Shown piece after piece: positions 5,337 through 21,256 of a stretch of 32,000 nt of DNA. The stretch's first letter is position 1. Each line of letters starts with the position of its first letter. The stretch covers positions 241,271 to 273,270 of the forward strand of contig NZ_LT963434.1 of the NCBI RefSeq assembly GCF_900199515.1. Direction: 5' to 3'. This DNA comes from Massilicoli timonensis. GTDB taxonomy: Bacteria; Bacillota_I; Bacilli_A; Erysipelotrichales; Erysipelotrichaceae. Position numbers and translations under genes: made by a program. The notes beneath the pieces were generated by a model. That model worked only from the letters and a program-made list of their open reading frames with translations, made no database searches and was not told where the DNA came from.

Positions 5337-6317
5337 TTGAAAAAGATCAAGATATTTGCGACCGGTGGTACGATTGCCGGAAGCGGTGCTGCCGGGAAAA
5401 GCGCCGCATATGAAGCTGGACATGTCGATATTGAGAAGCTGCTGCAGGACTTGCCTGACTTAGGAGAGATTGCACAGGTAAGCATGGAACAGATCTGTAA
5501 CAAAGACAGCAACGATCTGACGCTTTCCGACTGGCTGCTTTTGGCTAAAAAGCTCAATCAGGCAGCATTAGAAAGCGACTTAGATGGTTTTGTCATCACC
5601 CATGGCACCGATACATTAGAAGAAACCGCTTATTTCCTAAATCTGGTGTTCAAGAGTGAAAAGCCGCTTGTTTTGACCGGCGCCATGCGTCCAGCCACGG
5701 CAACCAGCGCCGATGGACCGATGAATTTATATCAGGCAATCGCTTTGGCGGCACATCCTGACAGTGTAGGACAAGGCGTTATCGCCTTATTCTCCGACAA
5801 TATTTTTTCCAGCCGGGATATTCGCAAGACGAGCAATTTCAAAATAGACGCTTTTCAGCATAATGATTTTGCCTGCATCGGCTATATGCGAGATGAGATC
5901 CCTTATTTTTATACACGCTCATTCAAAAAGCATACCGTCGCAACACCGTTTGATATAAGCGCGCTTACTGCACTTCCGAAGGTAGAGATCGTTTCTTATT
6001 ATGTCGGAGCTGATCCTGCGGTTTTGGATCATTATCTTTATCGGGAAAAAGTCGATGGCATCGTAATCGCTGGAAGCGGCAGCGGCAATTATGCAAAAGC
6101 GTGGAAAACCAAATTAGAAGCATTGGCCGCCGTTAATATTCCGATCGTTCGAGCCTCCAGAGTGAGCGGCATCGTGCTTCCCGCCGTGACCATGGATGTT
6201 GCCACGACGATCTGCGCCAATACCCTGACGCCGCAGAAAGCACGCATCCTGCTCATGCTCGCTTTGACAAAAACACATCAGATCGATGCCATCAAAGCGA
6301 TGTTTCAAGAATGCTGA
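5337..6317 (+). CDS. ansA: L-asparaginase (type I-like size, 326 aa)
   Basis: N-terminal FATGGTIAG catalytic Thr motif and the HGTDTLEETA motif. TTG start at 5337 behind SD GAGGGAG. Stop TGA at 6315-6317. Confidence 0.88.
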   Translation: MKKIKIFATGGTIAGSGAAGKSAAYEAGHVDIEKLLQDLPDLGEIAQVSMEQICNKDSNDLTLSDWLLLAKKLNQAALESDLDGFVITHGTDTLEETAYFLNLVFKSEKPLVLTGAMRPATATSADGPMNLYQAIALAAHPDSVGQGVIALFSDNIFSSRDIRKTSNFKIDAFQHNDFACIGYMRDEIPYFYTRSFKKHTVATPFDISALTALPKVEIVSYYVGADPAVLDHYLYREKVDGIVIAGSGSGNYAKAWKTKLEALAAVNIPIVRASRVSGIVLPAVTMDVATTICANTLTPQKARILLMLALTKTHQIDAIKAMFQEC

Positions 6318-9893: not shown

Positions 9894-11675
9894 TCACTTG
9901 TCTTGCCGCCATTCTCTCATTCCTCCCTTTTTCCGAATCAGAGCATTTTTTTCATCGCCGAGCTTCGCTTTTACCGCTGCATCGCTCACATTGGCGATTT
10001 CCTCGTTTAATTTACGGATCTGCTCATCCAGCAGCAGCATCCGGATCCGGTTCAGCGCATCTGACAACAATGCACTGTCATAGCTTTCCCGTGCCAGTTC
10101 CCATTCCGATATTTCTAGCAGCAGTTTTTTCACCTGCTCCTCTTTGATCACATCTAACAGCGCTGCCACATCCATCTCCGCATGATTGCGGTAGAAATCC
10201 ATGATATAGTATGCGAGCTTTTTGCACGCATCATCAATCAAAAAACCTAACTCATCACGAAAACGATTGCTGGCGCTTTTCGACACGAGCATCTGCGATA
10301 AGATGGTGTACTGGGCGCTGGTCGCTCCGTCCTTTGGTCTTGCTAAAAAGGCATTTCTGACGCTTTTTTCATTTTTCATAAACCGCTTTGGTGCAGACTT
10401 GCTTTCCACACTGCTTCGCATATCAAAGCCGGTAATTTCCTGTAAGCGCACAAAGGCACTTTGTCTTTCAAATTCATTTGGCAAAAGCGCGATCTGTTCG
10501 GCAAGCTCTAATGCGAACTCTTTGCGCTGGGAATAATTCTCCAAGTTATATGTCTGACTTAAGTAAGTAAATAGAAACTCTACCCAGGAAATCGTCTTTT
10601 CACTCATTTTCAGCAGCTCTTCTTTTCCATAAGCCGCAATGATCTCATCCGGATCTAGCCCCAGCTGATTATCGACGATTTCAAAAGGGAGCTGATTGGC
10701 AAGCGCCAATTTTCCGAATTTATAGGTTGCCTGTCGGCCGGCACGATCGCCATCGTAACAAACGATGATCGTCGATCGCAGCAACTTCATTGCCTTGATC
10801 TGTTCTTTGGTGCAGGCAGTTCCCAGTGTTGCGATCGCACTGTGAATACCGACCTTCGCAAAAGCGATCACATCCATCGCGCCTTCTGTGAGAAAGACGC
10901 GTTTTCGCTCCCGCAGCGCGGCTTTGGCACGATGATAATTAAAGATCAGCTGTCCTTTTTCATAGATCGAAGTCTGAGCGGTATTGATATATTTCGCTTC
11001 ATTTCCCTGCTTTGTAGTACGGGCGGTAAAGCCGACCGGATTTCCATAAGCGTCATGGATCGGGATCATGATGCGATCACTGAATATATCGTGGATGCCG
11101 TTGGCGCCGACCGCGCACACCCCGGCCGCAATCAGATTTTCATCACTGTGCTTTTTCGCATGCAGAAACTTATATAAAGCATTGCCTTCCGGATGATAAC
11201 CGATCTCAAACAGTTTGATGATCTCATCGCTGACACCGCGCTGATACAAATATTGTTTGATCGATGCGGCGCTCGACGTGCTTAACTGGTATTGCGTAAA
11301 CTCGATCGTATCCTGATTCACCTTATAAAGCGGCGTTTTTTTCGGATCAGCTTCCACCCGTTGATTTTGTCTTAAGATCGATTCATCCAGTGGTATGCCA
11401 GTGTATTGTGCAACCTTATACACCGCCTCTAAGAAAGAGATCTGTTCATATTTCTGCACAAAGGTAAAAACATTTCCGCCCGTTCCACAGACAAAGCATT
11501 TGAAGATCTGCTTATCAGGGGAAATCGTCAAAGAAGGATCGTGGTCATCATGAAAAGGACAAGTACAGACATAATTCTTGCCCTTTCGCGTCAATGGCAC
11601 ATAATGAGAAATAATATCTACAATATCTGCACGAGCGCGGATCTCATTGATCTGATCTTCACTCAATCGTGCCAC
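9894..11675 (-). CDS. dnaG: DNA primase DnaG
   Basis: CHC2 zinc finger ([34 protein letters not shown]), TOPRIM (EGAMDVI…DGDRAG). GTG start at 11675. Confidence 0.95.
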
Positions 11676-18549: not shown

Positions 18550-19725
18550 TTAGGTTAGGTCCTTTGCCAATTCTTGCAGATAAGCGAGGATCCCTGCCTC
18601 ATAAGCACCGCCGCCCTGCGCCATAAAAGGACTGCCGCCGCCCTTGAAGGCAAAGCGTTTGCCTACCTGCTGAAATAGCGCATTGGCCTTAAAAGTCATC
18701 GACGGTGCATGTGCGATCACCACGTGTGCACGCGCTTCATGATGACATACACATAATAGGCTCTTTTCATAGTTTCGCACCAATATCGAGCACAGGGAAG
18801 TAAACATCTTTGTATCAAGATCATCTATTTCCGCAACGATCAATGGTTCCTGATGTGTTTCAGCCATCTGTTTCGCATACAGCTCCACATACTGATTTTT
18901 CCAGTTCTGCTCTTCCTGCTTAGCTGCTTTCAGTTCATTTTGTAAGCGATCCACGCCCGCTGCGCTCTCTAATAGCGGCACTGCCAGTTTTTTGGCGCAG
19001 CTGCTCAGTGCTTCCAACTGCTTGCCATAGGTGTGAAGCAGCTGATCTCCGCATAAAAAGTAAATCCGGTAGCCGCGCGTCGTTTTTTCAAAGCGCTGAA
19101 ACTTGATCATTTGGATATGGCGAAGGCTTGGCACCTGCACACATCCGCACATATTATAGTCAATATCGCCGATCTTGACCGCGCGCAGCTCCTCATGATC
19201 CGTTTTTTCCAGCGCAACATGGCGAAGCGCCTCTTCCTTGGTAGGATACACGATTTCCACCGGCAGATCCATACAGATATACGCATTGCATAACTGTTCC
19301 AGTTCTTCCATCAGCGCATGATCGAACGCTGTAAAACCCATTTCCGCACCGGCTTCGACCGCATCATTAAAAAATGAAATCGTCGGTGCATGATAGCGTT
19401 TGTTCATGATCCCGCACATCAAATGCTGCGCACTGTGAATTTGCGTCTTGATGCGCCGATATGCCACATCGACCTGCTGGGTCACGACGCCTTCCAAAGG
19501 TTCTTCCACCAAATGATAAATATGTCCGTTTTCCCATTTCAACGCTTTTACCGTGAGATCATTTAAGGTGCCGCGATCAGAAGCCATGCCACCCCCTTCC
19601 ACATAAAACACACTTTCCTCACAGGCGATCCAATAGCCCCTTTCCTCTTTGATACGATCGATGACTTTGCTTTGCAGCGAAGTTTTCATCCAGTCATCAT
19701 AATAGCGATTCAACAATCTCATCAC
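18550..19725 (-). CDS. AlaX-L-type alanyl-tRNA-synthetase-related editing protein (tRNA_SAD + DHHA1-like C-terminus)
   Basis: HxxxH motif (HSAQH). The second zinc motif reads CGCVQV instead of CGGTHV. C-terminal GGGSPFMAQGGG resembles the AlaRS C-Ala/DHHA1 region. The start is ambiguous: GTG 19725, ATG 19722, or TTG 19716, which has the best SD spacing. Confidence 0.75.
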   Translation of the reverse strand: MMRLLNRYYDDWMKTSLQSKVIDRIKEERGYWIACEESVFYVEGGGMASDRGTLNDLTVKALKWENGHIYHLVEEPLEGVVTQQVDVAYRRIKTQIHSAQHLMCGIMNKRYHAPTISFFNDAVEAGAEMGFTAFDHALMEELEQLCNAYICMDLPVEIVYPTKEEALRHVALEKTDHEELRAVKIGDIDYNMCGCVQVPSLRHIQMIKFQRFEKTTRGYRIYFLCGDQLLHTYGKQLEALSSCAKKLAVPLLESAAGVDRLQNELKAAKQEEQNWKNQYVELYAKQMAETHQEPLIVAEIDDLDTKMFTSLCSILVRNYEKSLLCVCHHEARAHVVIAHAPSMTFKANALFQQVGKRFAFKGGGSPFMAQGGGAYEAGILAYLQELAKDLT

Positions 19726-19756: not shown

Positions 19757-20269
19757 TCATTTACTTTTTTGTTTCAAATATGCCGCAAAAGCACAGGCAT
19801 CTCTTTGTTGAATGAGTCGATTGATCCCCTTTGCCCGCTCATTTTCCAATATCGGCAGCACTTCCCCTTCTTTCAGCCAGACTACCTCCGCGATCAGCAT
19901 TTGTTCAAGCGGCGTGCGTTTGATCTGTCCGATATTTTCCCCTAAGCGCACCGCATAGAAATGAGAATGGGTTTCCCGCTTGATCAGATAATAACGATCA
20001 ACGATCTCTCCGATCGCTCCAATGATCTCACAGGTATAGCCGCTTTCCTCCATCACTTCCCGATGAATGGCCGCTTCTTCACTTTCGTTCTCCTCAATGC
20101 CGCCGCCGATCGTTTCTAAATGATCGCGCTGCCCAAACGCATCTTCTCCGACGATTCGCAAAAAAGCATATTCATCATGATCATTTACCGCGATCACCCG
20201 CACAGTATGACGCACCTCAGCGATTGCTTGTTTTTTCCATACCGTATCTTCCAGTTTTGCCAAAATCAT
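19757..20269 (-). CDS. NUDIX hydrolase
   Basis: Nudix box GGGIEENESEEAAIHREVMEESG. The ATG at 20269 (MILAKL) lies 8 nt after AAGGAG (20283-20278). The listed GTG at 20278 overlaps the SD. Confidence 0.88.
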   Translation of the reverse strand: MILAKLEDTVWKKQAIAEVRHTVRVIAVNDHDEYAFLRIVGEDAFGQRDHLETIGGGIEENESEEAAIHREVMEESGYTCEIIGAIGEIVDRYYLIKRETHSHFYAVRLGENIGQIKRTPLEQMLIAEVVWLKEGEVLPILENERAKGINRLIQQRDACAFAAYLKQKSK

Positions 20270-20285
20270 CGTCTTCACTCCTTAT

Positions 20286-20315
20286 AAAAGAAAAAACAGC
20301 CACCCGTGTGACTGT
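20286..20315 (-). terminator. intrinsic terminator/attenuator directly upstream of the NUDIX SD
   Basis: Minus strand: ACAGUCAC (20315-20308), loop ACGG, GUGGCUGU (20303-20296), then U5CU4 (20295-20286). The stem is 8 bp including one U-G pair, which is a C-A mismatch on the plus strand. Confidence 0.6.
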
Positions 20316-20420
20316 CTTTTCGGCGACATTGATTTGATAATTTTTTTTGGGGGAGATTCATGCAAATTCCCTTATTTGGGTGGGGGAAGATGGGAATAAG
20401 CACACTCAAATCAATGTCAT
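20286..20420 (-). ncRNA. candidate cis-regulatory leader or small RNA: three-way junction with C-rich loops plus terminator
   Basis: Structure seen by eye:
- P1: 13-bp perfect helix, 20418-20406 / 20337-20325.
- P3: CUUAUU/AAUAAG closing the 18-nt loop CCCAUCUUCCCCCACCCA.
- P2: GGGAAUU/AAU(C)UCCC closing UGCAUG.
- A8 junction, then the terminator.
The promoter-predicted start coincides with the first base of P1. Confidence 0.45.
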
Positions 20421-20424
20421 GTTA

Positions 20425-20454
20425 ATAATACCTAAAATCTATTCTGTTTGTCAA
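20425..20454 (-). promoter_or_regulatory. sigma-A promoter driving the structured RNA / NUDIX operon
   Basis: Minus strand: TTGACA (20454-20449), 18 nt, TATTAT (20430-20425). Confidence 0.55.
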
Positions 20455-20575
20455 TAAATTTCTACTAAAAAAAGTCGCTTTCTTATTATTTTTCTGATCT
20501 TCTACGCATTTTGTGGATAATCCTTCCCTTATTTTCCATTTTTCTATAACCGCATAGTATGAAATGAGGTGAAGT

Positions 20576-21256
20576 ATGAAAAAAATCGGGATCGTCACAA
20601 GAACAGAAGCGCTGGAAGGAATCGAAAGGACCTTTGTGAATGACAGTTATGGAAACGCCATTCGTAAAGAAGGATGGTTCCCCGTATTTTGCAATGAGAT
20701 CGCTTTGGCGAACTGGTATGCCCAAAATCTGGATGCGCTGCTCATACCCGGTGGCTTAGATATAGATCCGCTTTACTATCAAAAGCAATGCGATCCGGCA
20801 ACAAAGCGTTATCCAAACCCCATTGACGCACTGGATTTTGCTTTATTGGAAGCATTCTTACAGGAAGGCAAACCGATACTAGGCATCTGCCGCGGCTTAC
20901 AGGTCATCAATGTCTTTTTTCGCGGTACGCTGAAACAGGATATCAATACCGATGATCATGAACGCGATCATCTTCATGAGGTCACGATCCTGCCCGGTTC
21001 TTTTTTATCCTCTATGCAAAAGCCGGTCATGGAAGTAAACTCTTACCATCACCAGACCATTGACCGCTTAGGAAAAGATTTGCGGGCGATCGCCGTTCAT
21101 CGCGATCAAACGATCGAAGCGATCATACACAAAACATTTTCGATCCTGGCGGTACAGTGGCATCCGGAAAAAATGGAGGACGATGTCATCATTCCTTATT
21201 TTCTGCATGCCTGTGCCACTTGTCGCTTTCCTCTCCACCAGCGCCATAAAAAATAA
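20576..21256 (+). CDS. class I glutamine amidotransferase, peptidase C26 (gamma-glutamyl hydrolase / PuuD-like)
   Basis: Nucleophile elbow GICRGLQVINV and a His in VQWHPE. SD GAGGTGA precedes the ATG at 20576. Confidence 0.85.
   Translation: MKKIGIVTRTEALEGIERTFVNDSYGNAIRKEGWFPVFCNEIALANWYAQNLDALLIPGGLDIDPLYYQKQCDPATKRYPNPIDALDFALLEAFLQEGKPILGICRGLQVINVFFRGTLKQDINTDDHERDHLHEVTILPGSFLSSMQKPVMEVNSYHHQTIDRLGKDLRAIAVHRDQTIEAIIHKTFSILAVQWHPEKMEDDVIIPYFLHACATCRFPLHQRHKK

Follow-up and report, generated by a model that had tools for sequence, protein, structure and literature searches.

The subject of this analysis is a short, C-rich RNA element encoded in a 32,000-nucleotide (nt) stretch of the Massilicoli timonensis genome (NZ_LT963434.1, positions 241,271 to 273,270), hereafter the window. 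All coordinates are positions in this 32-kb window, and the element is read on the minus strand. The RNA unit is about 133 nt long (20418 to ~20286), carries its own promoter-like and terminator sequences, and lies immediately upstream of a gene for a NUDIX hydrolase. From the RNA promoter to the end of the NUDIX gene, the locus contains the following features:

20449 to 20454, minus strand: -35 hexamer TTGACA of the RNA's own promoter, from the promoter scan.
20425 to 20430, minus strand: -10 hexamer TATTAT, 18 nt after the -35 hexamer.
20418, minus strand: predicted transcription start, a G and the first base of helix P1, placed by the fixed 6-nt distance after the -10 box.
20406 to 20418, minus strand: 5' strand of P1, GACAUUGAUUUGA (also given as GACATTGATTTGA), from sequence and fold.
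20401 to 20405, minus strand: junction J1/2, GUGUG; 0-9 nt in homologues, with neither length nor sequence kept.
20395 to 20400, minus strand: 5' strand of hairpin P2, CUUAUU, assigned by homology.
20377 to 20394, minus strand: loop L2, CCCAUCUUCCCCCACCCA, 18 nt, with the conserved core UUCCCCCACCCA at 20388-20377, from the alignment.
20371 to 20376, minus strand: 3' strand of P2, AAUAAG, from homology and covariation.
20352 to 20370, minus strand: window-specific insert with a potential small hairpin, GGAAUU-UGCAUG-AAUCUCC (P3); 4-11 unpaired nt in homologues.
20341 to 20355, minus strand: second C-rich single-stranded element, CUCCCCC + A8; family consensus (CU)CCCCAAA.
20325 to 20337, minus strand: 3' strand of P1, UCAAAUCAAUGUC (also given as TCAAATCAATGTC), from sequence, fold and covariation.
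20286 to 20321, minus strand: intrinsic terminator, GAAAAGACAGUCAC-ACGG-GUGGCUGUUUUUUC plus UUUU, from the terminator scan.
20278 to 20283, minus strand: Shine-Dalgarno (SD) sequence of the NUDIX gene, AAGGAG, 2 nt past the U-tract.
19757 to 20269, minus strand: NUDIX hydrolase gene, 170 aa (Pfam NUDIX, E = 3.4e-10).

The TTGACA-18-TATTAT promoter matches 11 of the 12 consensus positions in the promoter scan. The start at 20418 is predicted from the constant distance that separates the first structural base from the -10 box in the window and its homologues; P1 begins six nt past the -10 box, and the preliminary description of this DNA, which had placed the start at the first base of that helix, agrees with this assignment. 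The other parts it had listed, namely a 13-bp helix enclosing 68 nt, the CUUAUU/AAUAAG stem around an 18-nt C-rich loop, the CUCCCCC + A8 segment, the terminator, the SD sequence and the ATG, are likewise present on the minus strand. At the 3' end, 3 nt past P1, a G+C-containing stem-loop (20321-20290) is directly followed by the U-tract; the scan counts 14 pairs in it, A/U extension and G.U pairs included. On the strength of these signals, the RNA is predicted to be transcribed. The promoter scan found no promoter-like site in the interval between the terminator and the SD sequence, and in the window NUDIX is probably transcribed by read-through of the RNA's terminator. The ATG at 20269 was used as the NUDIX start, in agreement with the N-termini of all homologues and with the SD spacing; the mechanical list of open reading frames puts it at GTG 20278, inside the SD sequence.

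The window RNA is unusually stable for its composition. The fold energy of a 151-nt stretch is -46.5 kcal/mol, compared with -28.1 +/- 3.7 kcal/mol for shuffled sequences (z = -5.0), and none of 200 shuffles was as stable. P1 is a perfect 13-bp helix. Inside it, the window may pair in a shifted register, AUUCCC/GGGAAU, which in its minimum-energy fold replaces P2 plus P3. P2 and P3 cannot coexist as they were first drawn, because both use G20371, which leaves GGAAUU/AAU(C)UCC as the longest possible P3. Nor is the three-way junction of that drawing a trait of the family, since P3 is absent from all 12 other lineages, where 4-11 unpaired nt stand in its place.

Relatives were sought in two ways, through the NUDIX protein and through a DNA pattern of the RNA that makes no use of NUDIX. 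The same RNA is present in at least 13 distinct lineages of Erysipelotrichales genomes and metagenomes, the window included. The NUDIX protein has few relatives; they fall into nine clusters, one of them named Erysipelotrichales. The upstream arrangement of the window recurs at loci L001, L002 and L008-L010 (NUDIX 46-51% identity) and in three metagenome-assembled genomes, from a Breznakia sp. and two Erysipelotrichaceae (L018-L020; NUDIX 40-46% identity). The protein-anchored genome scan gave at least three true relatives, and the prevalence of the RNA family is therefore underestimated. The NUDIX-independent pattern, TTCCCCCACCCA-N16-28-CCCCAAA, is matched in full by at least 119 stretches of metagenome contigs. 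Among the matches listed, a stem test, the model R1 and tblastn identified six further lineages with all helices (L090; L099; L157/L122/L102; L162/L163; L164/L131/L101; L167); the other listed matches have neither helices nor NUDIX. In viral contigs, a slightly shorter loop pattern gave eight matches, all without helices, and these were set aside as chance. At its radical-SAM locus, the cultured Dielma fastidiosa has neither the RNA nor NUDIX. The RNA family is so far restricted to Erysipelotrichales.

The family shares one architecture. Homologue promoters read TTGAC(A/T/G), 17 nt (18 in the window), TAnnnT and a gap of 6-7 nt before the first structural base, a spacing that holds in all sequences reaching that far. 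TTGAC(A/T/G) stands at the same position in 13 of the 14 aligned homologues; the contig of the 14th, L162, is truncated at this point, and TTGACA is present in its twin, L163. Most relatives begin with a 4-6-bp hairpin at the 5' end, P0, whose loop is often of the GNRA type; the window has no P0 and an unusually long P1. P1 measures 6-13 bp across the family, with an outer 3-4-bp extension in one clade, and P2 measures 6-11 bp, interrupted in some members by a bulge or an internal loop. The P2 loop contains UUCCCCCACCCAU; this L2 core is identical in 11 of the 14 aligned sequences and C-rich in all, and L2 hardly varies between lineages in which NUDIX protein identity is just 40-50%. The second C-rich element, the unpaired segment CUCCCCCAAA, lies in the junction J2/1, which contains (CU)CCCCAAA; its CCCCA is invariant in 14/14 sequences and the next A is kept in 13/14. 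A linker of 1-14 nt leads from P1 to a terminator, which is found in every homologue (8-14 bp; stem-loop energies of -8.6 to -18.7 kcal/mol in the 14 homologues) and whose sequence is not conserved. The invariant nucleotides of the family are the unpaired C-runs only.

The preliminary description had proposed a covariation test of the motif in related genomes. Because MAFFT is unable to align the helices, covariation was counted on a hand alignment of 14 sequences and 37 pairs (A4), fitted to the structure and entered through N-padding, and independent single-sequence folds were used with it. All 319 cells of this alignment pair (100%), and 28 of the 37 pairs carry changes in both partners. 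Covariation scores 0.636, compared with 0.138 for shuffles (0/500 reach 0.636) and at most 0.083 for slid partners; a subset of 6 sequences behaved in the same way. Over the 14 sequences, 10 of 13 columns of P1 and 10 of 14 columns of P2 covary; together with P0, these are three strongly covarying helices. The alignment also holds 17 G.U cells, which fix the strand as that of NUDIX. In the alignment-independent minimum-energy folds of single sequences, P1 was recovered in 14/14, P2 in 13/14 and the terminator in 14/14. We are highly confident that the element is a genuine conserved RNA gene.

No known RNA family accounts for the element, as the preliminary description had suspected. The RNA matches none of the 4227 families of Rfam 15: there was no match at gathering in the whole window, nor for this RNA at five homologous loci, and at E <= 10 the region 20150-20650 gave chance-level matches only (e.g. 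BTnc231, SSRC8), with neither RsaE nor ykkC-type models among them. Full-text literature searches on NUDIX-associated motifs and on non-coding RNAs of Erysipelotrichia returned no description of this RNA. The family is thus new to Rfam 15 and to the searched literature, while the kind of RNA that it most resembles is known.

The RNA and the NUDIX gene each occur without the other. In L167, the RNA, with a promoter matching 11 of 12 positions and a terminator, is followed directly by a convergent TIGR01212 radical-SAM gene, with no NUDIX. L200 and L201, with 96% and 78% identity to L167 in the radical-SAM protein, share this arrangement and also have no NUDIX, so that the RNA stands alone in two species-level lineages. 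The gene order at these loci, MFS, HAD, VTT, GATase (divergent), RNA and radical SAM (convergent), is that of the window's upstream side and of L008, minus the NUDIX gene. Between L167 and L201, P1 shows a compensatory change (GACACCC/GGGUGUC in L167, GGCACCC/GGGUGCC in L201; A-U to G-C), with L2 and J2/1 unchanged. Selection has therefore maintained the RNA in species without NUDIX, its would-be target in cis. The distance between the two is also variable: the NUDIX start codon lies ~45 nt past the terminator in L090 and 230-320 nt past it in L164/L131/L101 (~250 nt in L164), where the intervening sequence differs between near-identical strains and, in L164, includes a promoter-like site, TTGATA-18-TATTAT.

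Conversely, five NUDIX lineages (L003-6, L011-13, L014, L015 and L016-17) have no such RNA and no model match; here NUDIX mostly overlaps a PCC-domain gene on its upstream side. In L003-L006, L011-L013 and L016-L017, NUDIX starts 13 nt past this gene (PF03479) or overlaps its end by 11-17 nt. This arrangement suggests translational coupling in these RNA-less lineages. In L001/L002, the RNA with its promoter lies between the PCC gene and NUDIX. As to the substrate class of the NUDIX protein, the NCBIfam and PDB matches are generic and weak, all far below curated cut-offs, with similar scores for MutT, NudE and RppH.

The combination of a conserved promoter-RNA-terminator unit, a rigid scaffold, invariant unpaired C-runs, no predicted switch and orphan copies is best fitted by a trans-acting small RNA (sRNA). 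The full proposal, a stand-alone C-rich sRNA gene of ~133 nt with RoxS/RsaE-like action and NUDIX expressed by read-through, is one on which our confidence is evenly divided. A stand-alone sRNA of about 130 nt, like RsaE/RoxS without their signature, had been offered in the preliminary description as the alternative reading, and it is the one that the comparative evidence favors. In such a mechanism, a near-consensus sigma-A promoter would start transcription at the first structural base, and the closing helix P1, with P0 before it in most relatives, would hold hairpin P2, so that the loop UUCCCCCACCCAU and the segment CUCCCCCAAA, both nearly invariant, would be kept single-stranded. The intrinsic terminator would end the RNA. 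The two exposed C-rich segments may then serve as seeds for pairing in trans with G-rich mRNA sequences such as SD regions. NUDIX would come from the share of transcripts extending past the terminator, and would be co-expressed with the RNA rather than switched by it. For base pairing in trans as the mode of action, taken by itself, the balance is likewise level. One specific partner, the GGN-GGN-GGN codons of the invariant NUDIX motif IGGGIE, was considered for L2 and rejected: the third codon positions are unconstrained, and the pairing potential is not retained.

The C-rich regions of Firmicutes sRNAs with several such regions, such as RsaE/RoxS, pair with G-rich SD sequences (PMC4409812), and other Rsa RNAs likewise have several C-rich regions and pair with G-rich SD sequences (PMC4409812, PMC2790875). 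Like RsaE/RoxS (RF01820, Bacillales), the RNA described here is found in Firmicutes, falls in the range of ~100-130 nt, has its own promoter and intrinsic terminator, and displays several C-rich regions that are unpaired, including one hairpin loop and one single-stranded stretch. Judged by its sequence, however, it is not a member of RF01820: the covariance model of that family gives no match to the window RNA, even at E <= 10, and the duplicated CCCCUUUGUU that constitutes the RsaE/RoxS signature (PMC4409812) is absent, the motifs being UUCCCCCACCCAU and CUCCCCCAAA instead. Further differences are the long closing helix P1 around the C-rich parts, the 5' hairpin of most members with its frequent GNRA loop, the occurrence in the order Erysipelotrichales, and the tight linkage to a NUDIX gene that probably depends on read-through. 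By analogy in its C-rich regions, its own promoter and terminator and its length, close to the ~100 nt of RsaE/RoxS, the RNA may work like RsaE/RoxS without belonging to that family.

Several observations weigh against an sRNA that pairs in trans. No target was found: the search with the C-rich elements covered the 32-kb window, a size at which it is uninformative, and gave no enriched complementary site, with fewer matches to both elements than in shuffles. The frequent GNRA tetraloop of P0 and a 13-nt loop that is stricter than many sRNA seeds would also fit a tertiary-structured RNA that binds a ligand or a protein. Furthermore, the covariation rests on the hand alignment fitted to the structure, and RNAalifold on a plain MAFFT alignment (12 members) returned no pairs, a null that arises because MAFFT misaligns helices differing in both sequence and length. 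NUDIX lies downstream on the same strand in 11 of the 13 lineages, among them five of the six found by pattern alone (L167 is the one without it). In 9 of the 13, the terminator abuts the NUDIX SD sequence, 2-30 nt before it, with no promoter in between. An abutting terminator with a same-strand NUDIX gene is a classic signature of a cis-regulatory leader.

The best-surviving alternative is indeed that the RNA is a cis-regulatory leader of NUDIX, either a riboswitch or a protein- or RNA-dependent attenuator, in which binding at the C-rich loop and junction would alter the efficiency of the downstream intrinsic terminator, or else the translation or stability of the read-through mRNA. We regard this as rather unlikely, and it keeps substantial weight because of the abutting arrangement in 9/13 lineages, in which NUDIX probably depends on read-through. 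A structured domain does stand upstream of a consistent gene family on the same strand, and this linkage emerged even though the metagenome search used the RNA pattern alone. The RNA and NUDIX have also moved jointly to another context, behind the PCC gene, in L001/L002, and unpaired conserved nucleotides between covarying helices are typical of aptamers. Moreover, NUDIX genes are known riboswitch targets, e.g. of ykkC subtype 2c (PMC7266159). That class, which responds to nucleoside diphosphates and controls NUDIX and HAD hydrolases, resembles the present case in having a structured RNA and a terminator upstream of a NUDIX gene (PMC7266159); it differs in that no ykkC-type model of Rfam matches here, the architecture is different, no alternative terminator/antiterminator fold is seen, and copies without NUDIX exist.

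What counts against a cis-regulatory leader is the absence of a conserved switch. The preliminary description had proposed mutually exclusive terminator and anti-terminator folds, as in a riboswitch or attenuator, from two complementarities: GGGUGG (20305-20300) with CCACCC, and CACAC (20310-20306) with GUGUG. Both exist in the window and neither is conserved in the homologues. The long P1 (6-13 bp, with the outer extension in one clade) and the terminator, which do not overlap as exclusive structures, form together in 14/14 minimum-energy folds, and the terminator persists after removal of the 5' half in 13/14 sequences. In the homologue folds, the 5' half of the terminator has no conserved alternative partner before the 3' half is made. 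Masking of the SD sequence in cis, with CUCC covering GGAG, was rejected as a conserved function, since CUCC is absent in five lineages (L001, L020, L099, L157, L162). With pairings confined to the window, coexistence of P1 and terminator, and CUCC missing, there is no support for a terminator/antiterminator or anti-SD mechanism. Nor does the element occur solely as the leader of a regulated gene: it is maintained, compensatory change included, in the orphans L167, L200 and L201, and in L164, where NUDIX has its own promoter-like site, and five NUDIX lineages do without it. The riboswitch or attenuator model with exclusive folds is therefore not upheld. The terminated riboswitch transcripts SreA and SreB of Listeria also act in trans; a short terminated 5' RNA could do so here too, while read-through yields the downstream gene. 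SreA and SreB are, however, bona fide ligand-controlled riboswitches, whereas here no switch is predicted and copies without the gene exist.

A trans-acting RNA that binds a protein is unlikely. Such an RNA could be a decoy or sponge showing three to four CCCA/CCCCA units, much as CsrB displays GGA units, or the NUDIX enzyme could have it as a substrate or partner, e.g. in 5'-end processing. The conserved elements are indeed repeated unpaired CCC(C)A units (CCCCCA-CCCA in L2, CCCCAAA in J2/1 and an extra UCCCCACAAU in L001/L002) on a rigid covarying scaffold, the RNA persists without NUDIX, and the NUDIX protein weakly matches RNA pyrophosphohydrolase models, among others. Against this, we know of no fitting bacterial protein with specificity for C-runs, and the NUDIX matches are the generic, sub-threshold ones described above, in which RppH scores no differently from MutT and NudE.

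It is quite unlikely, as a related possibility, that the UUCCCCCACCCAU loop, together with the CCCCAAA junction, provides a single surface on the rigid scaffold for binding a small molecule or a protein instead of base pairing, with the RNA and the enzyme as a functional pair. With a small molecule, this could be a new riboswitch-like class tied to a NUDIX hydrolase, with a mechanism other than classic antitermination; with a protein, the partner is possibly the NUDIX enzyme itself, e.g. in 5'-end decapping of this RNA or removal of pyrophosphate from it. Finally, an ordinary promoter, 5' untranslated region and leaky terminator with chance hairpins and no function of its own, a notion encouraged by how common each element is by itself and by scans that find about as many promoter- and terminator-like sites in shuffled sequence, is refuted by the comparative data: the fold z of -5.0, the loop kept nearly identical at 40-50% NUDIX identity, the 28 covarying pairs, the fixed promoter-RNA spacing, and the listed pattern matches outside the family, all of which lack both helices and NUDIX.

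In one subclade, the intergenic region of the main RNA also contains a second C-rich RNA candidate, at L157(+) ~5575-5705, in L122 and L102, at L099(-) ~11035-11215 and at L163(-) ~545-730. It lies on the same strand as the main RNA, ~200 nt upstream of it, where it is antisense to the 5' leader of the GATase gene, which is divergent. Its parts are an extended -10 box, TG(G/C)TATATT, a 5' hairpin, GCAAGG...CUUGC, and a helix CUGUACGG/CCGUACAG around AUAUCCCCUUUUGAA, followed by UCUUUCCCCUUUA and a terminator with the loop (A/U)UUCCCCC. In L099, a G.U pair of the helix on this strand would be an A-C mismatch on the other. The candidate carries RsaE-like CCCCUUU motifs and gives a sub-threshold RsaE match (23.1 bits against a gathering threshold of 79). 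It shares with the main RNA the strand, a 5' hairpin, a closing helix around a C-rich segment, a single-stranded C-rich segment and a terminator, here with a C-rich loop; unlike the main RNA, it has no inner P2 hairpin and is absent from the window.

Transcription of RsaE/RoxS is under the control of ResD/SrrA and Rex. A palindrome, TTGTGAATAGGAATTCACAT, occurs at L157(+) 5833-5852 and at the same position in L122, its center ~63 nt upstream of the predicted start of the RNA. A single mismatch separates it from the Rex-type operator TTGTGAA-N6-TTCACAA, and it is similar to CRP/FNR sites as well. An upstream Rex operator as in roxS was nevertheless rejected as a family feature: the site is near-perfect only in L157/L122, degenerate in L099/L163 and absent elsewhere, and no Rex-like palindrome is present in the window. 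In the GATase/RNA intergenic region of L099, a ~70-nt direct repeat (L099(+) 10720-10790 and 10910-10980) contains in each copy a terminator-like hairpin, AAAAAAGACCCGAAGGTCTTTTTTT, and then GAGAAAGGGGAGGTTAACTACACCTATAG; one similar copy occurs in L157, and TGTGAAA motifs cluster nearby. T-box leaders above Rfam gathering (L157 8880-9079(+), 127.7 bits; L099 2954-3152(-), 109.4 bits) lie a few kb from the RNA and are unrelated to it.

Among the neighboring genes of the window, a GATase/peptidase C26 gene (plus strand, ending at 21256) and a VTT/DedA-family gene (minus strand, ending at 21196) converge with an overlap of ~60 nt, which is also seen in L008, L164, L090, L200 and L201. On the 3' side of NUDIX, a minus-strand gene (18550-19725) encodes a 391-aa protein that resembles the C-terminal half of alanyl-tRNA synthetase and AlaXM editing proteins; all these matches are below curated cut-offs, and a tRNA_SAD domain is present. 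This gene follows NUDIX only in the window and in L007; elsewhere, the convergent radical-SAM gene does.

Erysipelotrichales are common gut bacteria, and the literature searched held no description of regulatory RNAs from this order. The element is a well-supported new RNA family with a fixed promoter/terminator unit, three covarying helices and an invariant 13-nt loop, and its tight but dispensable linkage to an uncharacterized NUDIX hydrolase provides a testable lead to the function of both. If it is a true C-rich sRNA, it would extend regulation of the RsaE/RoxS type beyond Bacillales through an unrelated sequence family, and would offer an entry point to post-transcriptional control in Erysipelotrichales.

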